Shown: piece after piece, positions 1 through 42,045 of the stretch
Position numbering within the stretch: position 1 is the stretch's first letter
Layout of the letters: each line of letters begins with the position of its first letter
Assembly: GCF_036507355.1 (NCBI RefSeq)
Contig: NZ_AP027877.1
DNA length: 64,000 nucleotides
Source of the DNA: Escherichia coli
Lineage (GTDB): Bacteria; Pseudomonadota; Gammaproteobacteria; Enterobacterales; Enterobacteriaceae
Strand: one strand, 5' to 3'
Notes under the pieces: model-generated
The model's input: only the letters and a program-made list of their open reading frames with translations
Told to the model about the DNA's origin: nothing
Databases searched by the model: none
Position numbers and translations under genes: made by a program

Positions 1-2411
1 TTATCTTTCAGCATCAGCCCCCATTGGCACTGAGTCAGCGCCCGGAGAAATAGTCTGACTAAAATATCATCACTACGTTTGCTTCCGACTTTTAGTTTCA
101 TATCAGAAAACACCGTCCGGCAATAGAGAAAATCACACCAGTCATCCCAGTCAGCCAGGGTCTTCAGTGTATGCGTTTGCCGCCAGTCGTCGAAAAGGGA
201 GCGTTGCTGCAGAGCCTCTTCCATATTATCCCACGGGCGGGAAAACATCAGTAGATGCCCTTCATTCATGGCGGGCCGTACGGGCTGGCGTTTGAAATCG
301 AATTCCAGATTAAGACGGATATCCTGTTCCCGGGATACCAGATCGCTTTCCGAGAGCCACATCTCACGCGTTGATATCAACGTACTTCGGGATAACGTCT
401 GACCGGGTAAACGATTAAGGTAAAGATCTACCATATAGTCGTTATAGTCACTGCGTGGAATATCGGCAGGAGGTTTGACGCCAGCCCTGGCATGAACAAC
501 AGGTTTTCCCTGAATCGCTTTATAGGTTAACTGCCCCCGGGTTTTCATGGCGATAAGCTGGCTGACCTCATGCTTACATGTCAACATTGATGAACCCGGA
601 TCAACAATATCGCACAGCGACTGGAAGCGGGAAGACAGTGGACCGCTCATGTTTATCTTGTCAAGTGGGCAATTTGTCAAAAAACCATCGGTTGTGACGC
701 TGACAACCGATGAATCAGAAGGCAAAGCATTCATGAGTTCCCCGACAACGGCGCGGATAAATCCCGTCACATGCGCAGCAAAGAATGGCTGAGTAACCGA
801 TGATGGTGGGAGGGATCTGTTTAATCCACGGGCAGTATCAAAGGCGGTTTTGGCGCGAAGGCCCTGAGCAAGTTTGCCATAAAGCGAGTTGCCAATTTCT
901 TTCCAGAATTTCTCCTCCAAAGAACCCTTAATATGGCGATTACGGTTCTCACGGACCTGTTGAACAAAGGGAAGAAACACCGATGTTGATTCGCTGTTAT
1001 GTGGGGAGGTGTCACAGATCCAGGGGACGATGATCCCATTATGGATCGTCATCTCTGCCCCGAGCGACAGAGCAAGTTCGATTTCAGGTGCCGTTGCCCA
1101 TGATTCGCCACTTAATGGAAAGAATAACCCATATTGATCGGTCCGAACCGGCAGGCTGGGATAGGGAACTGATTCCGGGAACCGAAATGTGACAAGCGCA
1201 AATCCCATCACATGCCCACAGTAATCGTCCGGATTTTTACTGAGGCGGATGTTTCCGTAATCGGGTATGAGGATATCTAATAGCCCGGTGGTATACGCTC
1301 CAGCCAGATCGTAGTCATACCAGTGATCAGACGGTGTAACCCCCATCATAAAACACTCATTGCGTCCGCCGTGGTAACAGTTGATCGGGAACGTTTCAAA
1401 CAACTCTCTTGAAGGAACACTGGCGGGGTTTTTAATCGTCCGGAATGCCTGTTTCTCCGTGAGCCAGAGTTCACGGGTTTTAATGTGTGTCCCAAGGCAG
1501 ACTTCAGGAGACATATTGTTTTCTTTAAGTGTTTTGGTGAACCGTGAAACTGCCATCGCCCCGATGGTGGCGGGGACACGATCAATCATCAGCTCCCGGG
1601 CGCAAAAATTGCGAACCTGTAAAGCATAACGAACCGCAATCTCGGCATCCCGCAGAGCATAGGCTTCAAACCCTGCTCTGTCGCCCAGAAGATATTCACG
1701 CATATTGGTTATGGAATAAGGTGCAGGAATGGTGAGTTTGGGAAGACCCAGTAATTCACCACATTCAGCCAGACCCATACCCCCGGGAGTGATAAGCAGT
1801 GTATCGATGAAAGCTACGTTACTGCAACGCGGAGGGGAAGTTCGTTTGTCAAACATTATCTGTTCAGTCTTTACGCGACGTTCCTGCTGTTCATCAAAAT
1901 CGATACCGTAACGATTTTTGAAGCTGCTGACAGTACCGCGTATTCCTTTCAGAAGAATTTTGTAGTCTGACCAGAAATTGGCAAAGGAGGCGATATCCGC
2001 ACGAATGAAATGCGCATATATATTAATAATACCGGGCCATTTTGTAATCACACCCGTTTCAAGAAGCGGTGTAATCGTTTGACAGAGAAATTCCTTAAAA
2101 GACAGTCGGGATTTTTTCTGTGAGTCAGGTGGATAGATAATGTTCGATATACCAGTGTTATCGGGTAAGACGACATAACTCTGATATGACAGAATATCAT
2201 TCTGTTGTGTTTCAGGATTGAAAACATATTCGGTATCAAAACCGATATGGAGTGTCAGGTCACTTGAAATAACAGATACTTTTTTTGATGCAGGTGGTAT
2301 CACAGGATAATCATCAAGCGTTTTAGGTCTTTTAAGATTGAGCGCTGGCTCTGAAGTCACGGACTGATACCCCGAGGCGGCAGCGAGGATATCCTGCAAA
2401 TTATGGCTCAT
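1..2411 (-). CDS. Family-B DNA polymerase, piPolB-like (primer-independent PolB); C-terminal part truncated by the window edge
   Basis: Hand translation of the minus strand from ATG at 2411 (MSHNLQDIL...) is open to position 1, about 803 codons. Contains GFDTEYVF (ExoI-like), YDYDLAGAYTTG (motif A-like), KEIGNSLYGKLAQG (motif B), VVSVTTDGF (motif C-like) and AMKTRGQLTY (KTRG). Absent from the ORF track because it has no stop in the window. Confidence 0.8.
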   Translation of the reverse strand, partial: MSHNLQDILAAASGYQSVTSEPALNLKRPKTLDDYPVIPPASKKVSVISSDLTLHIGFDTEYVFNPETQQNDILSYQSYVVLPDNTGISNIIYPPDSQKKSRLSFKEFLCQTITPLLETGVITKWPGIINIYAHFIRADIASFANFWSDYKILLKGIRGTVSSFKNRYGIDFDEQQERRVKTEQIMFDKRTSPPRCSNVAFIDTLLITPGGMGLAECGELLGLPKLTIPAPYSITNMREYLLGDRAGFEAYALRDAEIAVRYALQVRNFCARELMIDRVPATIGAMAVSRFTKTLKENNMSPEVCLGTHIKTRELWLTEKQAFRTIKNPASVPSRELFETFPINCYHGGRNECFMMGVTPSDHWYDYDLAGAYTTGLLDILIPDYGNIRLSKNPDDYCGHVMGFALVTFRFPESVPYPSLPVRTDQYGLFFPLSGESWATAPEIELALSLGAEMTIHNGIIVPWICDTSPHNSESTSVFLPFVQQVRENRNRHIKGSLEEKFWKEIGNSLYGKLAQGLRAKTAFDTARGLNRSLPPSSVTQPFFAAHVTGFIRAVVGELMNALPSDSSVVSVTTDGFLTNCPLDKINMSGPLSSRFQSLCDIVDPGSSMLTCKHEVSQLIAMKTRGQLTYKAIQGKPVVHARAGVKPPADIPRSDYNDYMVDLYLNRLPGQTLSRSTLISTREMWLSESDLVSREQDIRLNLEFDFKRQPVRPAMNEGHLLMFSRPWDNMEEALQQRSLFDDWRQTHTLKTLADWDDWCDFLYCRTVFSDMKLKVGSKRSDDILVRLFLRALTQCQWGLMLKD

Positions 2412-2457
2412 AGTTAACTCCGAAAAAATGCCGGGAGCTGTGTCCCGGCATAAAGAA

Positions 2458-3096
2458 TCAAGATTTAATAACATTTACTACAGATTTGAAAATATCGGTT
2501 TTGCGTGATTCATCATCTACATGGATAAAGGAAACGAGTTTCCTGCCTGCTTTAATCAGGATACCGCGTTGCGTCTTTTCCACAGACGGGGTAACGTGTG
2601 CAGATAACAGACAATGTTCATGTAAATGAAGAAACTTTTTTGAGGCGTAGCCGCCATGTAATCGGGCTTGAATGTCAAGATACATATCATCAAGAGAACC
2701 GGGTTCTCCTGATTCACTCAATACCGGATAACCCTTCTTATCAAAGAGGTTAAGGATAGATTTACTATCATGTTCGAACAGGGTAACACCGTAAATGTAT
2801 TTCATTCGAAAGGTGAGGGAATCGGTGGTGTAGACCTCCTCCTGACGATTGAAATTTTTGAGACGCCTGGCTAATTCATTAAAAACAGCACGAGCAGTAG
2901 CCGTGTCCTGCAGGGTGTAGGTATAAAGTACGAAGCCATCTGTGCCGATGAGCTTTACTAAGTTGTCCATAATCGTGATAGCGAGAACTAATGCAAAGGA
3001 TAGATATTTTTCATCGTTGTCTACAGCTGTGTTTGCTGCTTCAGGAAGAATGTTCAGTGCATTATTAGCATTATTTGCTGTGTTCTTAGTAACCAT
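2458..3096 (-). CDS. Hypothetical protein, 212 aa, between the Xis-like gene and piPolB
   Basis: ORF track; start overlaps the stop of the upstream Xis-like gene by 11 nt; same strand as piPolB; no recognisable motif. Confidence 0.55.
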   Translation of the reverse strand: MVTKNTANNANNALNILPEAANTAVDNDEKYLSFALVLAITIMDNLVKLIGTDGFVLYTYTLQDTATARAVFNELARRLKNFNRQEEVYTTDSLTFRMKYIYGVTLFEHDSKSILNLFDKKGYPVLSESGEPGSLDDMYLDIQARLHGGYASKKFLHLHEHCLLSAHVTPSVEKTQRGILIKAGRKLVSFIHVDDESRKTDIFKSVVNVIKS

Positions 3097-3286
3097 TTAT
3101 ATCACCTTTAAGTTTGTTTTGACGATGTGCATTTTCCCACTCAACAATATCATCAAGAGAGAATCGTATAGCCCGCCCAATTCTGATGAAGGGCGGGAGT
3201 TTTCCGGGGTTGCGCGATATATCTGACGCAACCGTGGATGCAGAAAGATTAAATCTTTCTGCGAACTGCTTAATGGTTAAATACAT
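3086..3286 (-). CDS. AlpA/Xis-like helix-turn-helix excisionase or regulator, 66 aa
   Basis: Small basic protein MYLTIKQFAERF...RIGRAIRFSLDDIVEW typical of AlpA/Xis-family HTH proteins; sits immediately downstream of the integrase on the same strand. Confidence 0.6.
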   Translation of the reverse strand: MYLTIKQFAERFNLSASTVASDISRNPGKLPPFIRIGRAIRFSLDDIVEWENAHRQNKLKGDINGY

Positions 3287-3436
3287 AAACCTCCGGTTTC
3301 AGAGAATAAGAAGCCACGCGGATTTAATATCAATCCACATTCTGTGATGACTTAATGCAGGGCCCTGCAGAAGCATGCAATGACAATACCGTCCTTAAAC
3401 GAGTGTTGCATCAATCACGAATCACAGATCATAGGT

Positions 3437-4564
3437 TCATTTTGTGTCATAACTTTCTATGACCTGAGAAACCACTGCGTGTGATGTCGCTGCATTGTGA
3501 AAAGCGTAGCGACGGGTCGCCGTGAGTGAATGGTGATTTAGCAGATGGGAAGCGATTGCAATATCCCCGGTCGCCTGTAGTACCCGGGTGGCAAAGGTAC
3601 GGCGCAGGTCATGCATCCGCAGGTTATCAATGTTGGCATCCCGACAAATACGGGCAAAGGTTGCACGCGGATATGCCAGAGGGCGGGCATTGTCGGTTAG
3701 TTGTGGAAAAATGTAAGTTTTGCTGAGCATCAGGTCCTGCTGGCACTGGACAACTGCAATGGCTGGAAGTGCAAGTGGGCAGGTGAAAGGGTGTCCGGAC
3801 TTTGTATCAGGCAGTATGAGTTGATGCATATCCGGGTGCCAGTACTCCCATTTCAGGGTACATACCTCACCAATACGCATCCCCGTATAAAGAGCAAGCA
3901 ATATAGAATCAGCTGCCGGTGTTTGCAGCGCTGTTGCTGCGTTAATAAAGCGCGGGATTTCTGTCGCTGACAGTGTGCGATAGCGAATGTTATTTTCTTT
4001 CAGATAGCGGACATGTGACATCGGGGAATGTGTGATCCATCCAGCACGTACTGCCAGAGAGCATATTTTGGACAATATTGCGAGGATACGGTTTACTGTT
4101 GACGGACGTAATTTTTCCCGTAAGCCAGCAGCATATTGTTCTAGTTCTCCTGCCGTGATGTCGCGAAGTTGCCGCTTGCCCCAGAACGGGCGAACGTAGA
4201 GGTTGAGTTTTGACAACTCTGACTGAGGACTCTTTTTATACAACTGCAAATCCGGTAGCCACAGGTCATTGATGGCCTGTTCCACAGTGAATCGACGGGA
4301 CTGAACAGCAAGGCGATTTTTATCGGCAAGCAGGTTCATCACATGCTGACGGGCATCCTCAATGCAGAGATGAGGGAATTCACCCAGTGTTTCATATATA
4401 CGTTGATTTTTGATGGTGGCGCGAAAGGCCAGCGTGATCCGTTTTGGATATACCAGTGCACGCAGGTTTTGGCACTGAATATCACGGTATTCCTGACAAC
4501 CCGTGAGGGGATGTGGAAGTTGGTGAATTGATTTGTTGCTGAAACGCAGATCCAGAATAGGCAT
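3437..4564 (-). CDS. Tyrosine recombinase / phage-type integrase, 375 aa
   Basis: C-terminal catalytic signature: TGMRIGEV (Arg), MHDLRRTFATR (HxxR), LLNHHSLTATRRYAFH (catalytic Tyr). Confidence 0.9.
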   Translation of the reverse strand: MPILDLRFSNKSIHQLPHPLTGCQEYRDIQCQNLRALVYPKRITLAFRATIKNQRIYETLGEFPHLCIEDARQHVMNLLADKNRLAVQSRRFTVEQAINDLWLPDLQLYKKSPQSELSKLNLYVRPFWGKRQLRDITAGELEQYAAGLREKLRPSTVNRILAILSKICSLAVRAGWITHSPMSHVRYLKENNIRYRTLSATEIPRFINAATALQTPAADSILLALYTGMRIGEVCTLKWEYWHPDMHQLILPDTKSGHPFTCPLALPAIAVVQCQQDLMLSKTYIFPQLTDNARPLAYPRATFARICRDANIDNLRMHDLRRTFATRVLQATGDIAIASHLLNHHSLTATRRYAFHNAATSHAVVSQVIESYDTK

Positions 4565-4663
4565 CGTATTTCTCCTGTAAATGACACTGGAAAAATACGA
4601 TGTGAGGTTATAGTCTGCCAGTTACAGCTTTCACAGTTCATCAGGTGAAAAATGCTGATTCGG

Positions 4664-4699
4664 ATATAATGGCAACACAATTCCATGTCGCCATTATAT
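4664..4699. promoter_or_regulatory. Imperfect inverted repeat (ATAATGGCAAC ... GTCGCCATTAT) between ORF 4707-5837 and the integrase start
   Basis: Read directly from the sequence; could be a terminator for the upstream ORF or an operator in the integrase leader. Confidence 0.35.
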
Positions 4700-4706
4700 T
4701 AAGAAA

Positions 4707-5837
4707 CTACAGTTTCATGATCTTGTTCGCTATTTTTTCGAAGTAAACCTCATTCTTAAGAAGAGTGATATTGTTAGTTTGAACACCCAGACCACTGGAG
4801 GTTGACTGGAAGTTGAGTGAACCACTTATCACGGTGGACTTTCCTGATAAAAATGAAATCAACTCCTTGGAAGATGGTGCCCACTCAGGGTTTAAGAGTA
4901 ATGCAATGTAGATATATGTCTTACGAAGCAATTGTTCGATATCTTTTTTATACCCCGTAGTGTTTTGCTTACCTTTAATGCAAATTGATTTGATTATGAA
5001 CTCATCAGGGCTGGTTAAAGGCGTTTTAAACTTATTCAGTGATCCATCGTTATGAATGACTTCATAAGGCAGCATAGATAAAATGATCAATGCAATCATT
5101 TTAGGATGATAAAGGTAGTTATCACGAATGATTTTTCCTGCCTTCATTGTATTGAGTGTTGTTTGAATAAATACAAAAAGATATTCAGAGCAAAAGTAAC
5201 AAAACACAAGCCAGGATAGGTCAATGGCTGGAATGTTAATATCCTTAGGTAGTTTGTTTAGCCAGTATTCAGACTTCAAAAAGGTCCTGATTTCAACAGT
5301 ATATTCATGCATTTTTGCGCTGAAATCAAGCATTGCTACTTGACCTGATTGTTCCGTAACTGTGTGGTCTATAAATGTTAGTGTATTGCACATTTTATCC
5401 AGCGTGTTTTGAAAACAAGAAAGGAGTTCGGCATTATTATTACCATTAACCGCAGATGAAAGTTCAGTTGCAATAAATGCATCCAGTAGCATACAGATTT
5501 TTTTCGGAATGACATTTTTACGGGATTGCTGTGAATAGAAATATACTGCCAGTAAATTAAAGGCAGTGCACTCCTTTTTTAACCATTGTTCGAGCACTGG
5601 GACGTGCTGAAAAAAATTGATATGCTTAGCAGTAGATGCTGATGGAGATAGTACATGAAGAATATCTACAGCAGGCTTCATTTGCAATATTTGATCGGAT
5701 TCGGTAGTCGTCATTAGTTCCAGTAATTGCTGTTCAGAAAATAGTTTAGACAGGTGATCAATGTCTTTTTGGTATTGGTTAAGTTTTTTTAAATTCCCCG
5801 GTACACGGGTTACATTGTTTTTCATTTTCTCGAACAT
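4707..5837 (-). CDS. Hypothetical protein, 376 aa, AT-rich, no recognisable domain
   Basis: Long ORF in the track; low-GC codon usage; no Walker A, HEXXH or nuclease motif seen. Confidence 0.6.
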   Translation of the reverse strand: MFEKMKNNVTRVPGNLKKLNQYQKDIDHLSKLFSEQQLLELMTTTESDQILQMKPAVDILHVLSPSASTAKHINFFQHVPVLEQWLKKECTAFNLLAVYFYSQQSRKNVIPKKICMLLDAFIATELSSAVNGNNNAELLSCFQNTLDKMCNTLTFIDHTVTEQSGQVAMLDFSAKMHEYTVEIRTFLKSEYWLNKLPKDINIPAIDLSWLVFCYFCSEYLFVFIQTTLNTMKAGKIIRDNYLYHPKMIALIILSMLPYEVIHNDGSLNKFKTPLTSPDEFIIKSICIKGKQNTTGYKKDIEQLLRKTYIYIALLLNPEWAPSSKELISFLSGKSTVISGSLNFQSTSSGLGVQTNNITLLKNEVYFEKIANKIMKL

Positions 5838-6239
5838 AATTTTATCCTCGTTTGAATTAATACACTGATTTAAAAAGTAGCATGTCGTGTTAGCGAGGTA
5901 ATCCTAAAACGTGAATGGGATCAGGGGCAAGCTTGAATCTGCGTAAGGATATGGCTTAAATTTAATGGTGTAATTAGTGGATTAGAGGCTTATAGCTATT
6001 TAAATACAATAAGTTATGACGGTGTGTGGCGGGTGTAAATCGGTTAGTTTTTATGGTTAAAATATGAGCGCTATGAGGTTTCAGAGATGGTGGTGTTTAA
6101 ATTACATAAAACCAAGGCCTGATAATCAGTATCAATACCGGAACGATGTCATATGATTAACACTGTCTATGGCATTGATAATGATCTATGCAAGGCTGAA
6201 ATTAGCTCTGCTTCACGATGATATAGTGTTCTATAAAGA

Positions 6240-7475
6240 TTAAAAGGAAATAAACAGAGCCTTTCGCCGATGAATCAATGTGCTGATTTCCCTCAAATCA
6301 GCCTCAATACTACCAACATCACCAAAGACTTCACCTCTAATCTCACTTCGATTTTTCATGAAATTGGTGCTTAATAAGCTTTCTTTTTTTAATGCCATTA
6401 ATTTTGGTTTTATATCGTTATAGAAATGCTTACGGCTTACCCTGATGCTATGAATCGAGTAGTAAACTGTTTTATACATCAAAAATATAAGTAACTGGCC
6501 GAGAAGATATTCTTTTTCAATGTATTTATATTGAGAGGATTTTTCGCGTTTCGCCAGGTAGAAAACATGAGGTGCGATGATGGTGGGGATAAAATCCAGT
6601 GCTGGAGAGGTTTTGGTTTTTTCTGTTTCTCTTCCGGATTGAAGATGTTGAAGTACAGAGTATACAATGCTTAAAATTATGGCGTTACTTATATTATTAA
6701 TTGCAGTTGGGTAAATATGCAGATTGCTTATCAATTCTGAAAGGCAAAGTAAAACACCAGTGATGTTGGGTTTTCTGCCGGAGATTGTGGTGCTGTTGAA
6801 AATGTGACGATTCTTACGACTTATATTGACAAGTTTATGAGTGCAGAACTCTATATGTTCGACGATTTTATCTTGACTATTTTTAATGTATTTTGAAATG
6901 TTAGTGATCCGGCCATTCAACGTTAGTTCATCAAGCAATATATCATTTTTAATATTGCGAATTTCATCGCAATGTTCACATTGAGAAACTATCTCATGTA
7001 ATACATAACTCGAAGTATTGCGTGACGATGCTGATATGTAATCTAAAATGGAATGCTCGACTTTGATTTTTTGTTTGTATTTTTTAATGCACTGTTTGAT
7101 TGTTTTTTGTAGAGTATTTGAGATGTGTTTTTTATATTCTTTTAGAAAATCTTGCTCTAAAAAGAGTGAGGAGAAGATCAACTGCTGGCGAGATAATTTA
7201 ATCTCAGGCTTGATCAATTTAATCCGAAAAACTCTTCCCTCCAACTCATAGCTGAACATGGAAGATAAGTCATAGTGGGGTGATAAATGTTCGAGTAACG
7301 ACATTCGTGTATTCATTAGCCGCTTGAATTTATGGTCAGCATACATAAGTGTTTTTTTTATTTGCTCATCATAAAGTGGGCCGATAGCGCAGTTGGCAAT
7401 ACTCATTCTATCCGGAGACCTCCAGTCAGCAGGGGAATCACATTGACGGTCATCATTACTATCAAAGGGCATCAA
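6240..7475 (-). CDS. Hypothetical protein, 411 aa, AT-rich, no recognisable domain; has hydrophobic segments
   Basis: Long ORF in the track; divergent from hsdM across a ~300-bp intergenic region. Confidence 0.6.
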   Translation of the reverse strand: MMPFDSNDDRQCDSPADWRSPDRMSIANCAIGPLYDEQIKKTLMYADHKFKRLMNTRMSLLEHLSPHYDLSSMFSYELEGRVFRIKLIKPEIKLSRQQLIFSSLFLEQDFLKEYKKHISNTLQKTIKQCIKKYKQKIKVEHSILDYISASSRNTSSYVLHEIVSQCEHCDEIRNIKNDILLDELTLNGRITNISKYIKNSQDKIVEHIEFCTHKLVNISRKNRHIFNSTTISGRKPNITGVLLCLSELISNLHIYPTAINNISNAIILSIVYSVLQHLQSGRETEKTKTSPALDFIPTIIAPHVFYLAKREKSSQYKYIEKEYLLGQLLIFLMYKTVYYSIHSIRVSRKHFYNDIKPKLMALKKESLLSTNFMKNRSEIRGEVFGDVGSIEADLREISTLIHRRKALFISF

Positions 7476-7778
7476 CGTTGCCGATTATGGATGATGTCAG
7501 CTTCACACACCAGTACGGGTGATATATGGATCATCATTACCCCAACGGCAGTTTTACACCATGGCTAATATGGATGCTATCTTACTAAGATAATTGGTTT
7601 TTAGCGAGTGACGAGCCAGGTTGTGTCAGTCTGTCTCATGTCGATATTACGGGGATGATGCAAACCTGAATGCTGCGATATTGGCGTGTCAGGGGAGGCA
7701 TCTTACGGTATCATTTACCGCAATTTTTAAGATGCAAAGCCCTGCATCGCTAGCTTTTTCTTCAGACCAGGATGATTC

Positions 7779-9302
7779 ATGAACGACAAAATCAGTCAGG
7801 ACACGATCAACAAAGCCCTGTGGGCCGCGTGTGATACGTTCCGTGGCACCATCAGTGCTGATACCTATAAAGACTTTATCCTTACCATGCTGTTCCTCAA
7901 GTACATTTCAGATGTCTGGCAGGATCACTACGACGAATATAAAGTGCAATATGGCGATGCGCCGGAACTGATTGAAGCGATGATGGCGAACGAGCGCTTC
8001 GTGTTGCCGAAAAGCGCCAGTTTCTATGCGTTGTACGAGCGACGTCATGAGCCGGGCAACGGTGAGCGTATCGATCAGGCGCTGCATGCGATTGAAGAAG
8101 CCAACGGCACCAAACTGAAAGATGCCGGGAAAAGTGTCTTCCAGGATATTTCGTTTAACACTGACCGTCTGGGCGAAGAAAAACAGAAGAACACCATCCT
8201 GCGTCAGTTGCTGGAAGACTTTGCCGGTGAAGATCTTAACCTGAAGCCAAGCCGTGTCGGTACGCTGGACGTTATCGGTAATGCTTACGAATATCTGATC
8301 AAAAACTTTGCTGCCAGCGGTGGGCAGAAAGCCGGGGAATTCTATACCCCGCCGGAAGTTTCGGACCTGATTGCTGAACTGCTCGATCCGCAACCGGGTG
8401 ATACCATCTGCGATCCGGCCTGTGGTTCGGGTTCATTGTTGATGAAGTGTGGGCGTAAAATTGTCTCCGGGCATGATAGTCGTAACTATGCATTGTTCGG
8501 TCAGGAAGCGATCGGTTCTACGTGGTCGCTGGCGAAAATGAATATGTTCCTGCACGGGGAAGACAACCATAAAATCGAGTGGGGCGATACCATTCGTAAC
8601 CCGAAGCTGCTCGATAAAAATGGCGACCTGATGCTGTTTGATATCGTGACCGCTAACCCACCGTTCAGCCTCGATAAGTGGGGCCATGACGAGGCCGAGA
8701 ACGATAAGTTTGGCCGTTTTCGTCGCGGTGTACCGCCGAAGACTAAAGGAGATTACGCTTTTATCTCGCATATGATCGAAACCCTGAAACCGGGAACTGG
8801 CCGTATGGGCGTAGTTGTGCCACACGGTGTGCTTTTCCGTGGCTCCAGCGAAGGTAAAATTCGCCAGAAACTGATCGACGAAAATTTGCTGGATGCGGTA
8901 ATTGGTCTGCCGGAAAAACTGTTCTACGGTACGGGGATTCCGGCTGCGATTCTGATTTTTAAAAAGCAGAAAGTTGATGACAAGGTGCTGTTTATCGATG
9001 CCAGCCGTGAATTCAAGGCAGGTAAAAACCAGAACCAGCTTAGCGAAGAAAACATTAAGAAAATCGTCAAGACCTACCGTGATGGCGATAACGTCGAGAA
9101 ATACGCCTATCTTGCCAGCCTGAAGGAAATTCAGGACAACGACTATAATCTCAATATCCCGCGCTATGTCGATACCTTTGAAGAAGAGGATGAGATTGAC
9201 CTGCTGGCGGTGCGAGCAGAACGCGAGCAACTGAAGGCGGAATTGGCGAAGCTGGAAACGGAGATGGCTGGATATTTGAAGGAGTTGGGTTATGGCTCGT
9301 GA
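7779..9302 (+). CDS. hsdM: Type I restriction-modification system, DNA methyltransferase subunit M
   Basis: 507 aa; N6-adenine MTase motifs including DIVTANPPF and the AdoMet-binding region DPACGSGSLL. Confidence 0.95.
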   Translation: MNDKISQDTINKALWAACDTFRGTISADTYKDFILTMLFLKYISDVWQDHYDEYKVQYGDAPELIEAMMANERFVLPKSASFYALYERRHEPGNGERIDQALHAIEEANGTKLKDAGKSVFQDISFNTDRLGEEKQKNTILRQLLEDFAGEDLNLKPSRVGTLDVIGNAYEYLIKNFAASGGQKAGEFYTPPEVSDLIAELLDPQPGDTICDPACGSGSLLMKCGRKIVSGHDSRNYALFGQEAIGSTWSLAKMNMFLHGEDNHKIEWGDTIRNPKLLDKNGDLMLFDIVTANPPFSLDKWGHDEAENDKFGRFRRGVPPKTKGDYAFISHMIETLKPGTGRMGVVVPHGVLFRGSSEGKIRQKLIDENLLDAVIGLPEKLFYGTGIPAAILIFKKQKVDDKVLFIDASREFKAGKNQNQLSEENIKKIVKTYRDGDNVEKYAYLASLKEIQDNDYNLNIPRYVDTFEEEDEIDLLAVRAEREQLKAELAKLETEMAGYLKELGYGS

Positions 9303-10566
9303 TTCGCTTTACCCAGTGAGCGTTAAAGCTGGAAAACCGATCCTTGGAATGCTACCTACAGGATGGCAAAAGTTATCATTAGAAAAGTGCTTAAATATAG
9401 AGGCAAGAAAGGCATATATACAAGATAATCAAGAGTATGACTTAGTTACAGTAAAGCGCTCCAGAGGTGGCGTAATAAGACGTGAGCATCTTAAAGGAAA
9501 AGATATCTCCGTAAAAAGTCAATTCTATATTAAAGAAGGCGACTTTCTCATATCAAAACGACAAATTGTGCACGGTGCTTGCGGTCTTGTACCTAAAGAA
9601 CTTTCTGGCTCAATTGTATCGAATGAATATTGTGTGCTTACAGGGAAGTCCGGTTTTTATCTTCCTTATATGGAATTTCTATCGGAGTCTCTATATTTCC
9701 AGCAAACCTGCTTCCACTCTAGCATTGGTGTGCACATAGAGAAAATGATTTTTAAGTTAGATAGTTGGTTTAAGTGGCCATTTAATATCCCCCCACTGTC
9801 TGAACAAAAGAGAATCGTTAAAATCCTGTCAACCTGGGATAAGGCGATTTCGGTGACGGAAAAGCTTCTCACCAACAGTCAGCAGCAGAAAAAAGCCCTG
9901 ATGCAGCAATTGCTTACCGGGAAAAAACGCTTGCTGGATGAGAGGGGGGTGAGGTTTAGTGGGGAGTGGAAGAGAGTAAAACTGGGTGCGATAGCCGATA
10001 TGAACAGTGGAGGTACTCCGAAATCAACGGTTGAAGAGTATTATGGCGGGAATATCCCATGGGTATCTATTTCTGATATGACATCTAATGGAAAGTGGAT
10101 TGCTACAACTGAAAAATATCTGACTGAATTAGGATTGAACAGTTCATCCGCAAGAATATATCCAAAAAACTCGGTTCTTTATGCTATGTATGCTTCTATA
10201 GGTGAATGCAGCATTGCTGCTGTAAATTTAACATCTTCGCAGGCAATCTTGGGTATTAGACCAAAAGATTGTTTAAATTATGAGTTTTTATATTTCTATC
10301 TTACATCATTAAAAGAAAAAATAAAACTGCAAGGCCAGCAAGGTACACAGTCCAACCTAAACGCCGGAATGGTTAAAGAGTTTGAACTAGACTTACCCAG
10401 TATAAGAGAACAACAAAAAATCGCCGCCGTCCTGTCCGTCGCCGATGCCGAAATCTCCACGCTGGAGAAAAAACTCGCCTGCCTGAGAGATGAGAAAAAA
10501 GCCCTGATGCAACAGCTACTGACTGGCAAACGTCGTGTTAAGGTCGATGAGGCGGTTGCCGAATGA
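9292..10566 (+). CDS. hsdS: Type I restriction-modification system, specificity subunit S
   Basis: 424 aa; two AT-rich target-recognition domains separated by the repeated conserved segment KKALMQQLLTGKKRL / KKALMQQLLTGKRRV; start overlaps the hsdM stop by 11 nt. Confidence 0.95.
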   Translation: MARDSLYPVSVKAGKPILGMLPTGWQKLSLEKCLNIEARKAYIQDNQEYDLVTVKRSRGGVIRREHLKGKDISVKSQFYIKEGDFLISKRQIVHGACGLVPKELSGSIVSNEYCVLTGKSGFYLPYMEFLSESLYFQQTCFHSSIGVHIEKMIFKLDSWFKWPFNIPPLSEQKRIVKILSTWDKAISVTEKLLTNSQQQKKALMQQLLTGKKRLLDERGVRFSGEWKRVKLGAIADMNSGGTPKSTVEEYYGGNIPWVSISDMTSNGKWIATTEKYLTELGLNSSSARIYPKNSVLYAMYASIGECSIAAVNLTSSQAILGIRPKDCLNYEFLYFYLTSLKEKIKLQGQQGTQSNLNAGMVKEFELDLPSIREQQKIAAVLSVADAEISTLEKKLACLRDEKKALMQQLLTGKRRVKVDEAVAE

Positions 10567-11246
10567 AACTGACGAAAAGCGGTCCACTGACTGACCGGGA
10601 AATCGACTGGCTGGAAGAAATATTAATGAAGTATGGAATGGATGATTCTGTACTCTGTTTCTCTGAGCTGGATGGATTGCTGACGGCGATTTTATCAGGT
10701 CCAAATATGGTTTCACCCAATATCTGGCTGAGTGCTATTTGGGGAGGAGGCGATTATCATCCGAAATGGTCATCTGAGAGAGAGATGGAGCGTTTTGTCA
10801 GTCTGTGTTTTCAGCATATGAACGATATCGCTGGTTGCCTTTATGACGCCCCTGAACTGTTTGAGCCGATTTTCAATGAGCGTGAGGTAAAGGGGGAAAA
10901 ATATACCATTGTGGAAGAGTGGTGTTTTGGTTATATGAAAGGAAAGTCACTGGATGACTGGTCTGGTCTTCCCGGTGAGTTACGGCCTTCTCTGGAAGTG
11001 ATCGCTCTTCATGGCGTGGAGAAGAATTTTCCTGTACTTGAGAAAATGACCAGAGAGCAGTTTGAGAAAAGTATTTCCCTTATTAAGCCTGCTGCACTGG
11101 CACTTTATCAGTACTGGTTGTCAGTGAGAATGTCAGAGGCATCATCCCGGCCTGTTCCAGTGAAGGGGGCAGAAAACATGCCCGGGCGAAATGACCCGTG
11201 TCCGTGTGGCAGCGGTAAAAAATTTAAGAAGTGCTGTCTGCATTGA
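10563..11246 (+). CDS. YecA/UPF0149-family protein with C-terminal SEC-C metal-binding motif, embedded between hsdS and hsdR
   Basis: 227 aa; C-terminal [20 protein letters not shown]; colinear with chromosomal YecA (20141-20806) along its whole length; ATGA overlap with the hsdS stop. Confidence 0.85.
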   Translation: MKLTKSGPLTDREIDWLEEILMKYGMDDSVLCFSELDGLLTAILSGPNMVSPNIWLSAIWGGGDYHPKWSSEREMERFVSLCFQHMNDIAGCLYDAPELFEPIFNEREVKGEKYTIVEEWCFGYMKGKSLDDWSGLPGELRPSLEVIALHGVEKNFPVLEKMTREQFEKSISLIKPAALALYQYWLSVRMSEASSRPVPVKGAENMPGRNDPCPCGSGKKFKKCCLH

Positions 11247-19704: not shown

Positions 19705-19889
19705 CTTTGCAGTCATATAGATATAGCAAAGGACAGGTAGGCCTCCGTGAGAGGGGGACTTACCTGTGCAGATTCTGTGCTCAAAGTTATCCAAGTCTAT
19801 CTATTTACTGCCAATTACAGTAAAATGAGTAAGCAATTACAGCAAAGTTTCGCAATGCACTGCTATGTAACTCATTGATCCTGCGTAGA

Positions 19890-19945
19890 ATTTAAAATCC
19901 CTCGGCGTTCGCGCTGTGCGGGTTCAAGTCCCGCTCCGGGTACCA
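19890..19945 (+). repeat. 3'-terminal 56 nt of tRNA-Leu (leuZ-type; anticodon loop to CCA), the att-site remnant at the right boundary of the element
   Basis: ATTTAAAATCCCTCGGCGTTCGCGCTGTGCGGGTTCAAGTCCCGCTCCGGGTACCA matches the 3' part of tRNA-Leu(UAA) as I recall it; the 5' acceptor and D-arm are absent upstream, so this is not a complete tRNA gene. Confidence 0.8.
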
Positions 19946-19988
19946 TGGGAAAGATAAGAATAAAATCAAAGCAATAAGCAGTGTCGTG

Positions 19989-20013
19989 AAACCACCTTCG
20001 GGTGGTTTTTTTG
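19989..20013 (+). terminator. Rho-independent terminator (aaccacc ttcg ggtggtt + T-run) downstream of the tRNA remnant
   Basis: Perfect 7-bp stem, 4-nt loop, run of 7 T. Confidence 0.65.
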
Positions 20014-20140
20014 TGCCTGCAACTTGTCGTTACACCCTCCTTAATTTTTAATCACCGGCAAAGCCACTCAAAAAGTATCTCTGATACGGACCGGCATGTA
20101 AGATAGGTGTTGGCGAGTTGAGATCCACAAGGAAAAGCGT

Positions 20141-20806
20141 ATGAAAACGGGACCGTTAAACGAAAGTGAGTTGGAATGGCTGGACGATATTCTGACCAAA
20201 TACAACACTGACCACGCCATCCTTGATGTGGCGGAGCTGGACGGTTTATTGACGGCGGTGTTGAGTTCTCCGCAAGAGATTGAACCGGCACAGTGGCTGG
20301 TTGCCGTGTGGGGTGGGGCTGACTATGTGCCGCGCTGGGCGTCAGAGAAAGAGATGACGCGCTTTATGAACCTGGCTTTTCAACATATGGCCGATACCGC
20401 AGAGCGTCTGAACGAATTCCCGGAGCAGTTTGAGCCGTTATTCGGCTTGCGAGAAGTTGATGGCAGCGAGCTGACGATTGTTGAGGAGTGGTGCTTTGGC
20501 TATATGCGGGGCGTGGCACTTTCTGACTGGTCAACATTGCCCGATTCGTTAAAACCAGCGCTGGAGGCGATAGCGCTGCACGGTACTGAGGAAAACTTCG
20601 AGCGGGTAGAGAAGATGTCGCCAGAAGCGTTTGAAGAGAGCGTAGATGCCATTCGACTGGCGGCGCTTGATCTACATGCGTACTGGATGGCGCATCCGCA
20701 GGAAAAAGCTGTTCAGCAACCGATCATAGCAGAAGAGAAACCGGGGCGTAACGATCCTTGCCCGTGCGGTAGTGGTAAGAAATTTAAGCAGTGCTGCCTG
20801 CATTAA
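20141..20806 (+). CDS. yecA: UPF0149-family protein YecA with SEC-C motif (chromosomal copy)
   Basis: 221 aa; ends [20 protein letters not shown]; position between tRNA-Leu and tyrP as in K-12. Confidence 0.9.
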
Positions 20807-37196: not shown

Positions 37197-37952
<756 letters not shown>

Positions 37953-37998
37953 TTTTTACCGTTGCATCATGTCGCCCAATATGATGCTTGCTCGTACC

Positions 37999-38031
37999 AG
38001 GCCCCTGCAATTTCAACAGGGGCCTTTTTTT
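37999..38031 (+). terminator. Rho-independent terminator after cutC
   Basis: aggcccctg caatttcaa caggggcct followed by a T-run. Confidence 0.65.
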
Positions 38032-41943: not shown

Positions 41944-42045
41944 CTGCCTGATGCGCTATGCTTATCAGGCCTACATAGTCCCTGCAATATATTGAATTAG
42001 CAAGGTCTTGTAGGCCGGATAAGGCGTTCACGCCGCATCCGGCAG
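41944..42045. repeat. REP/BIME repetitive extragenic palindromes between torZ and cmoB
   Basis: gcctgatgcg...cttatcaggc and taggccggataaggcg...ccgcatccggca units. Confidence 0.55.

Follow-up and report, generated by a model that had tools for sequence, protein, structure and literature searches.

The window analyzed here is a stretch of 64,000 nucleotides from the Escherichia coli chromosome (RefSeq assembly GCF_036507355.1, contig NZ_AP027877.1), in which two open reading frames (ORFs) on the minus strand, ORF-A and ORF-B, lie between a gene encoding a tyrosine recombinase (3437-4564) and hsdM (7779-9302), the first gene of a type I restriction-modification (R-M) operon. ORF-A (4707..5837) encodes 376 amino acids from an ATG start, ORF-B probably occupies 6240..7406, and a spacer of 402 bp (5838..6239, minus strand) separates the two. 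GC content over 4500-7500 is 35-37%, as compared to 46-52% on either side. Positions 4600-7600 are 100% identical to several complete genomes, including that of RM14721 (locus L001), and in E. coli genomes with such identity both ORFs are labelled ‘hypothetical protein’ by RefSeq. A preliminary description of this DNA, made from the sequence alone, reported two AT-rich ORFs of 376 and 411 aa on one strand, between an integrase and the R-M genes and without a recognizable motif, and took them for a paired, Abi-like or other orphan immunity module. The ORFs are present as it described them, and the defense-rich context that it noted is that of a pipolin carrying type I R-M and other defense cargo.

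The island is a pipolin, i.e., a mobile defense island with its own DNA polymerase. The 866-aa polymerase encoded beside the recombinase and its relatives share invariant K613, H614, K623, T624, R625 and G626 residues, which make up KH-X8-KTRG, the signature defining primer-independent family-B DNA polymerases (PolB), with the same residue numbers as in PMC5695915; these residues identify the island as an E. coli pipolin. In RM14721 it begins with genes for tRNA-Gly, tRNA-Cys and tRNA-Leu, an Arm-type (Arm-DNA-bind_3) integrase, two small hypothetical proteins, a DUF2787 protein and IS1, continues with the 866-aa polymerase gene (minus strand) and genes for a 212-aa hypothetical protein, a 66-aa helix-turn-helix (HTH) protein, a 375-aa tyrosine recombinase, ORF-A and ORF-B, and ends with hsdM/S, a YecA-like gene, hsdR, and M48, DUF262, PD-(D/E)XK, restriction endonuclease (REase) and SIR2 genes, followed by the chromosomal yecA. 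Published enterobacterial pipolins have a conserved core near a tRNA gene, the recombinase IntP2 and an excisionase beside the polymerase gene piPolB, and a distal, defense-rich cargo (PMC11551731), and the gammaproteobacterial core further comprises an IntSXT-type integrase near the tRNA gene, DUF2787 and WYL. This core set (tRNA-Leu, Arm-DNA-bind_3 integrase, DUF2787, IntP2, HTH_17 and piPolB, then R-M or other defense genes) is present in RM14721 and in the homologous loci, the WYL gene being found in the homologous loci and an IS1 region standing in its place in RM14721.

In the window, piPolB (1..2411, minus strand) is cut by the edge of the stretch, and its identification rests on the RefSeq label ‘DNA polymerase’, on PHROG DNA polymerase matches and on the KH-X8-KTRG signature. 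The 375-aa recombinase (3437..4564, minus strand) is supported by NCBIfam Xer-type matches, a PHROG integrase match (8.8e-50) and RefSeq, and is called IntP2 here after PMC11551731. Between the two lie a 66-aa excisionase (Xis) of the AlpA-type HTH_17 family (3086..3286, minus strand; TIGR01764, 3.5e-5; PHROG ‘excisionase and transcriptional regulator’, 4.3e-7; PF12728 in homologous loci) and a conserved hypothetical protein, p212 (2458..3096, minus strand), which is syntenic in all loci. The cargo in the window comprises type I R-M, DUF262, PD-(D/E)XK and REase genes, so that signature, recombinase with excisionase, and cargo are all the same as in the bimodular enterobacterial pipolins of PMC5695915, PMC7385651 and PMC11551731.

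A blastn comparison with another E. coli pipolin, L024, showed that 4654-7518 is a discrete, recombinationally swappable cassette, situated as a hinge between the defense cargo and the IntP2-excisionase-p212-piPolB module. L024 aligned with the window at 98.2% over 1-4653 and at 92.6% over 7519-9295, whereas the intervening 2,865 bp (minus strand; ORF-B, the spacer, ORF-A and a hairpin past the ORF-A stop codon) had no similarity to the 1,247 bp found at the same place in L024, which hold a single ORF-A allele (ORF-A′, 43% identical to ORF-A) and no ORF-B. At least seven ORF-A allele types were distinguished, 35-46% identical to one another. On one backbone, pairwise identity reached 88-100% for piPolB, 89-97% for IntP2, 89-100% for Xis and 76-100% for p200, while the ORF-A groups were only 40-46% identical. 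Another case was that of the Lelliottia (L009) and Intestinirhabdus (L020) loci, which share 100% nucleotide identity from mid-IntP2 through piPolB and ~90% in hsdM, whereas their ORF-A alleles are 44% identical, within an island of 45-65% identity whose sharp edges enclose just ORF-A and the intergenic region upstream of it. Both dS and dN of ORF-A are raised relative to the flanks, and between E. coli and Edwardsiella, where descent looks vertical, ORF-A diverges at about the rate of IntP2 and piPolB; together, these observations indicate an exchange of old alleles and not simply fast evolution.

Although its alleles are exchanged, ORF-A is locked to the recombinase-polymerase module. In all loci recovered, from at least 10 genera of Enterobacterales, it stands directly upstream of IntP2 and co-oriented with it, as the first gene of a one-strand array that continues with IntP2 (371-378 aa), HTH_17 (62-68 aa), a protein of ~200-221 aa and piPolB (863-869 aa). 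This array was present in Serratia, Edwardsiella, Hafnia, Lelliottia, Plesiomonas, metagenomic contigs and a second E. coli type, as well as in loci found independently via piPolB in Citrobacter, Buttiauxella, Intestinirhabdus and an Enterobacter metagenome-assembled genome. On the other side of ORF-A the cargo varies, with type I R-M, UvrD-PDDEXK/MTase/ResIII, dynamin-like GTPases or patatin. A contig scan with the piPolB alignment, whose narrow peptide patterns retrieved only 7 loci, all from Enterobacterales, and did not reach the pipolins of Vibrio and Aeromonas, found ORF-A in all six of the loci with sufficient flank. Of 5,426 complete E. coli genomes, 294 contained piPolB, 250 the window-type ORF-A, 22 a second ORF-A allele and 269 ORF-B, placing ORF-A in ~92% of the E. 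coli piPolB loci; all occurrences of the three genes were chromosomal, the ORFs were mostly intact, and 10 of the genomes showed two places for piPolB or ORF-A.

In phages and plasmids the two families left hardly a trace. A tblastn search detected no ORF-A homolog in 50,697 phage records and a single match in 72,556 plasmids, a 97-aa remnant truncated by IS1 and lying beside the same R-M cassette on a Klebsiella plasmid; ORF-B had no match in either collection. The plasmid is pKqu-1 (IncFIB) of Klebsiella quasipneumoniae (L023), in which the remnant occupies 8001-8294 and hsdM/S, a YecA-like gene and hsdR are retained, and it looks like direct evidence that IS1 has carried pipolin cargo onto a plasmid. 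Being present in nearly all piPolB loci, absent from phages and not found intact on plasmids, ORF-A is a core-like gene by the criteria of the pipolin literature, and it lacks the marks of exchangeable cargo, namely patchy presence and homologs on plasmids, phages or conjugative elements. Its position beside the recombinase-polymerase genes in all relatives found makes it more likely that ORF-A serves the element than that it is exchangeable anti-phage cargo.

ORF-A itself encodes a pipolin-specific, all-alpha fold-orphan. An exhaustive profile search of 1.84 billion representatives gave 32 matches in total and enlarged the family by just four full-length clusters, so that its full-length homologs amount to only 6 clusters at 50% identity; homologs keep their length down to 35-45% identity, and the gene is under purifying selection (dN/dS 0.15-0.36). 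Conservation is uneven along the protein: the N-terminus (residues 1-40, ~50-60% identity) is conserved, the middle (112-205, ~20%) is hypervariable and the C-terminal core (291-330, 63-68%) is highly conserved, harboring a near-invariant block, N-x-T-G...K...Q...K-T-Y-I-Y-I-A-L-L...W-x-P...K-E. Across the alleles no conserved catalytic motif was seen, the invariant residues being chiefly hydrophobic or structural. The GC content of ORF-A is 33-39% in every host, as compared to 48-51% for the adjacent IntP2. An AlphaFold2 (AF2) model consisted entirely of helices (pLDDT 65, pTM 0.58); Foldseek against AFDB50 matched it only to uncharacterized Enterobacterales members of its own family, and a fold search against BFVD gave nothing.

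ORF-B encodes a helical orphan protein. It is listed as 411 aa from a TTG at 7475 and annotated by RefSeq as 410 aa from an ATG at 7472, but every homolog outside E. coli begins at the residue equivalent to M23 (MSI...), which makes the ATG at 7406 the probable true start, giving 388 aa. The family comprises 13 clusters at 90% identity, to which a profile search added no further members, and it, too, is under purifying selection (dN/dS 0.10-0.14); the length-conserved homologs and dN/dS values mark both ORF-A and ORF-B as genuine coding genes. The AF2 model of ORF-B was unusable (pLDDT 40), and we therefore gave no weight to the layout of an N-terminal helix and beta-hairpin that AF2 secondary structure suggests for both proteins. 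Paralogy of ORF-A and ORF-B, sought with BLASTP and two hhalign runs (probability 0.2), was rejected at detectable levels.

The two ORFs were proposed to be a pair, and this holds in part. ORF-B accompanies only the window-type ORF-A lineage, with loci in E. coli, Citrobacter and Edwardsiella, so the pair does recur elsewhere; the two co-diverge (ORF-A 69% and ORF-B 57% identical between E. coli and Edwardsiella), and Salmonella homologs were listed for both. Most ORF-A alleles lack ORF-B, which is missing beside the ORF-A of Serratia, Hafnia, Lelliottia, Buttiauxella, Intestinirhabdus, Enterobacter and Plesiomonas and beside the second E. coli allele, and ORF-B-like genes also occur without ORF-A, so the two do not constitute an obligate two-gene module. 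The most distant ORF-B relatives (45% identity; Enterobacter, E. coli and Citrobacter) reside in a different island, a sister island without piPolB (L005, L028-L030), where the ORF-B-like gene (L028 10001-11197) is followed by genes for a 394-aa tyrosine recombinase and a 641-aa DUF927 protein that resembles Cch1, the replicative helicase of SCC elements. Next to these genes lie a DUF2787 block and an IntSXT-type integrase, the distal defense cargo of the island is variable, and the island is of the kind of the piPolB-less, pipolin-like islands mentioned in PMC11551731. Thus, the same slot directly upstream of an inner recombinase and replicase pair is filled by two orphan families, which are unrelated but alike in size and in being helical, and in the window both stand in that slot in tandem.

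Neither family could be assigned to anything known, in line with the absence of motifs reported in the preliminary description. Pfam, NCBIfam, PADLOC and PHROGs gave no significant match for ORF-A, ORF-B or seven to nine divergent alleles; PADLOC returned 0 families for the two proteins and, over seven divergent homologs, a sole and non-significant entry (PDC-M36B, E=0.039, P0031). A weak AbiJ_NTD4 match (E=0.013) was confined to 2 near-identical ORF-B sequences and was not reproduced in other homologs, and isolated matches to TagK (0.065), HrcA (0.036) and a tail-fiber PHROG (0.05) were likewise rejected as non-reproducible. Homology to housekeeping or phage structural proteins, which would have spoken against a defense module, was checked for and not found, and the profile searches and structure predictions that had been suggested yielded no family, a moderate all-alpha orphan model for ORF-A and an unusable one for ORF-B. 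The membrane association proposed for the 411-aa protein did not hold up: judged by a conserved, uncharged hydrophobic stretch of ~19 residues with a Kyte-Doolittle (KD) value of at least 1.6, ORF-B reaches peaks of 1.09-1.56 only, which contain E, K, H and D residues and are not conserved in homologs, and the GRAVY values in this test were -0.07 to -0.38.

We also characterized the junctions of the cassette, which carry several candidate regulatory features. On the hsdM side, a conserved divergent intergenic region (7519..7778), part of the 92.6% flank shared with L024, may contain promoters for both hsdM and the cassette. In L024 this conserved region stops ~46 nt before the ORF-A′ start, which places the cassette between a putative promoter region and a conserved Int leader. 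In the spacer between ORF-B and ORF-A, the last ~100 nt before ORF-A are conserved from E. coli to Edwardsiella and include a candidate promoter and a candidate ribosome-binding site, GAGGA; a promoter consensus scan scored below the shuffle expectation. Right after the ORF-A stop codon lies a strong hairpin (4664..4699, minus strand; dG -19.6 kcal/mol, z -4.6), which occurs only in the window-type lineage and Plesiomonas and is terminator-like in Edwardsiella, where a T-run follows. A terminator as a general feature of ORF-A was rejected, the hairpin being lineage-specific and the other alleles having no obvious terminator before IntP2. Of the marks of a moron-like autonomous transcription unit, a composition unlike that of the neighbors was present, and the strong post-stop hairpin was found in these lineages only.

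Just inside the conserved flank, ~11 nt past the right edge of the cassette and ~75 nt upstream of the IntP2 ATG, lies an invariant 12-mer, GATGAACTGTGA (4631..4642, minus strand). Each of 22 pipolin loci carries it here once, without mismatch, and Plesiomonas has another copy in the Int-Xis interval; the 12-mer was also placed at 12575-12586 in L014. With one exact copy per element (one in the 33 kb of RM14721), a repeated operator was rejected, and on inspection the 12-mer could be matched to neither a LexA box nor a full CRP site, nor to a sigma-70 promoter. We also discarded a conserved mini-ORF upstream (MNCE...), which is not constant in length (5 aa in L011). Further downstream, an RNA hairpin pairs the Shine-Dalgarno (SD) sequence and AUG of IntP2 (4562..4602, minus strand; dG -22 kcal/mol, z -5.6), and equivalent hairpins were found in all lineages examined, among them Serratia (z -6.2), Plesiomonas (z -4.4), L011 (a different sequence, z -2.5) and Edwardsiella (z -1.4). 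From its predicted pairing, this hairpin is a candidate translational gate on the recombinase. Rfam gave nothing in window positions 4400-7900.

The pattern of the cassette recalls several known systems. The master repressors (Stl) of the SaPI islands are helical, are encoded next to int, are highly divergent between otherwise related islands and sense specific phage proteins. ORF-A shares with the Stl proteins of SaPIs and other phage-inducible chromosomal islands (PICIs) its place next to int, its strongly divergent alleles between conserved flanks and the layout of constant ends and a variable middle. It differs in that the N-terminal HTH of Stl was found with Pfam and NCBIfam in neither ORF-A nor ORF-B, in any allele, and in that Xis and the replicase of pipolins lie downstream of int on one strand instead of being divergent from the repressor gene. 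As a DNA-binding domain was looked for and not found, we do not file ORF-A as Stl-like and regard the likeness as one of analogy, not membership. Defense hotspots adjoining integrases have reportedly been described in P4-like satellites and P2-like prophages by Rousset et al. in 2022. These are alike in holding variable AT-rich genes at a fixed place beside an integrase, exchanged by recombination in conserved flanks, but they hold unrelated, patchy systems that are found elsewhere, whereas what occupies the slot in pipolins is in every case an ORF-A homolog, constant in length and found in no other place. Finally, HsdS target-recognition domains and lambdoid immunity regions present divergent alleles at one locus, with a conserved framework and variable recognition regions, and ORF-A follows the same pattern without a sequence or structural relation to them.

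How, then, might the cassette function? We tentatively favor, by analogy, a reading in which ORF-A (and ORF-B, by its position) may belong to the element itself as a polymorphic sensor or gatekeeper that governs the recombinase-replicase module, with a logic like that of Stl; we hold this reading with some reserve and short of calling it probable. We infer it from the fixed slot, the constant ends and variable middle, the shuffled ancient alleles and the recurrence of the slot in the sister island. The conserved ends of ORF-A would provide a constant function, such as binding of the Int leader or an operator, oligomerization, or contact with a conserved partner, and the hypervariable middle would recognize a variable external ligand, such as a phage protein (from a helper or an invader) or one from another mobile element. 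ORF-A would then control when IntP2, Xis and piPolB are made or act, together with the hairpin predicted to mask the IntP2 ribosome-binding site. The swapping of ancient alleles between identical flanks in spite of tight linkage suggests that ORF-A interacts with some variable partner outside the element, and in several alleles no terminator separates ORF-A from IntP2, as this reading would have it. As an analog, Stl2 of SaPI2 is a phage-protein-sensing repressor and an antiviral protein in one (PMC11846896). Several observations weigh against it: no HTH, DNA-binding or other domain was found in ORF-A or ORF-B, in any allele, with Pfam, NCBIfam and profile searches, and neither family profile matched a PDB chain by sequence, even at E<=10, where both searches returned zero matches in a database that presumably includes the solved Stl structures. 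The ORF-A model is only moderate (pLDDT 65), fold searches yield generic helical bundles, and the strong hairpin between ORF-A and IntP2 in the window-type lineage suggests a separate transcript there. Moreover, the alleles shuffle freely against identical Xis, p212 and piPolB, which indicates that ORF-A is not co-evolving with them and also fits an autonomous function such as defense, and a low GC content, a place in such an island and deeply diverged alleles are no less typical of immune genes.

These last points lead to the reading proposed from the outset, stand-alone defense against phages or other mobile genetic elements (MGEs), in which ORF-A would be a single-protein, Abi-like sensor-effector, with the middle as sensor and the C-terminal core as effector, kept for good at the border of the defense cargo, and ORF-B a second, independent or cooperating defense protein. 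Pipolins are among the most defense-dense MGE families, the AT-rich composition of the cassette is unlike that of its neighbors, deep polymorphism between conserved flanks together with a hypervariable region is what an arms race produces, and the shuffling of alleles independently of both flanks implies autonomy; the window-type lineage has a conserved upstream region and a terminator-like hairpin, and the ORF-B family also stands beside integrases in another defense-carrying island. And yet neither protein nor any allele matched PADLOC, the AbiJ_NTD4 hint was not reproducible, and there is no conserved catalytic motif and no transmembrane segment for a membrane-disrupting effector. ORF-A, unlike proven cargo, does not leave the IntP2-piPolB module, and no unrelated gene ever takes its place; its presence and absence are core-like, and its sole non-pipolin trace is the IS1-truncated plasmid remnant. 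We regard stand-alone defense as a plausible rival, if somewhat less likely than the gatekeeper reading; the earlier interpretation is partly supported, by island context and orphan status, and a defense role is no longer the best-supported reading, as no Abi or other defense model matched and ORF-A is locked in position rather than free cargo.

The allele series could also reflect incompatibility or immunity between pipolins, or between pipolins and satellites, the alleles being exclusion groups against superinfection or tandem integration, or ORF-A could be an addiction or stabilization factor. A fixed locus with multiple ancient alleles does resemble the immunity regions of temperate elements, the ORF-A family is restricted to pipolins, and no pipolin ‘reinfection’ has been reported in Enterobacterales, unlike Vibrionales (PMC11551731). 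Most alleles have no second small partner gene, neither a repressor-like nor a toxin/antitoxin-like domain was found, and the case is purely inferential, so that we consider this improbable. Much the same applies to the idea that ORF-A assists IntP2 in recombination or piPolB in replication as a dedicated accessory factor (an architectural or directionality factor, say, or a protein that binds the origin or acts as a loader), for which speak a basic pI (8.7-9.5), a synteny with IntP2-Xis-p212-piPolB that is invariant over piPolB divergence down to 59%, and the analogous slot upstream of the tyrosine recombinase and replicative helicase of the sister island. Here, the 44%-identical ORF-A alleles beside 100%-identical Xis, p212 and piPolB and 93%-identical IntP2 argue against co-adaptation, a hypervariable central third is not expected of a housekeeping accessory factor, and the purified piPolB of E. 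coli needs no further protein factors to replicate DNA (PMC5695915), leaving this explanation quite improbable. That the ORFs are spurious or decaying, functionless AT-rich frames, as the low GC, the lack of domains and the poor AF2 confidence for ORF-B could suggest, is scarcely credible and effectively refuted by length-conserved homologs in at least 10 genera, dN/dS values of 0.10-0.36, invariant residue blocks and the 250-269 of 5,426 complete E. coli genomes that carry the ORFs, mostly intact.

Returning to the sensor/gatekeeper reading, we see a further step, which is unlikely on present evidence: ORF-A and ORF-B could represent a new class of polymorphic gatekeepers coupling recognition of phage or helper proteins to the expression or activity of IntP2, Xis and piPolB, with the alleles as inducer-specificity or immunity groups. 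Such a class, if true, would provide the missing regulatory link for when pipolins excise or replicate, and possibly for how they interfere with phages. Should ORF-A instead prove to be a stand-alone defense protein, it would found a new fold-orphan defense family.

Pipolins are widespread defense islands and occur in ~5% of complete E. coli genomes, and to our knowledge piPolB is the only pipolin gene functionally studied so far. ORF-A is linked to IntP2-piPolB as tightly as any annotated core gene and yet is kept as multiple ancient alleles, and so the locus bears on what controls pipolin excision and replication and on whether the core itself contributes to immunity. Two ‘hypothetical proteins’ thereby become a sharply defined, testable locus. 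The pipolin and the genes as such were already known, ORF-A and ORF-B being evidently among the unnamed ‘hypothetical protein’ shell genes found in 64-93% of 92 E. coli pipolins, whereas the cassette behavior, the allele series, the slot in the Cch-helicase island and the Int-leader features are not described in the pipolin literature searched. The main texts of the pipolin papers and Table S3 of PMC7385651 do not single these genes out, nor do they describe a hinge cassette, allelic replacement, the 12-mer or the SD-masking hairpin, and the accessions of ORF-A and ORF-B are absent from the literature searched. The core-gene model of PMC11551731 includes ‘2 orphan proteins’, of which ORF-A may be one.

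Some observations concern the neighbors of the cassette. For p212 there was no family match in Pfam, NCBIfam, PADLOC or PHROGs, and despite its synteny in all pipolins it is very divergent, with 25-47% identity from one backbone to another; a ‘type-4 UDG’, to which p212 may correspond, is listed for 95% of pipolins in the literature on those of E. coli. The phage relatives of IntP2 are at most 29% identical and hence gave no information on an ancestral slot. On the cargo side, hsdM (7779..9302, plus strand; RefSeq annotation), the left flank of the cassette, shows 97-99.6% amino-acid identity between genera, which marks it as recently exchanged cargo. Between the Lelliottia and Intestinirhabdus loci, hsdS (L009 7700-8180) forms a divergence island of its own (32-45% nucleotide identity) beside the ~90%-identical hsdM, mirroring the ORF-A pattern across hsdM; hsdS divergence is expected for target-recognition domains.

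Farther along the island, YecA-family (UPF0149 + SEC-C) genes occur at 10563-11246, inside the R-M operon between hsdS and hsdR, and at 20141-20806, the latter being the chromosomal yecA at the distal island edge. In the interval between an Mrr-like restriction endonuclease gene and yecA (window ~19705-20140 as compared to L001 30106-32299), the window is missing ~1.76 kb including the SIR2-family gene of RM14721, and so cargo at the distal end varies among otherwise identical pipolins. Beyond the island, Rfam matches at the gathering threshold identified two ordinary chromosomal small RNAs, MicL (37724-38031, plus strand) and ES036 (CssrF; 41967-42009, minus strand).

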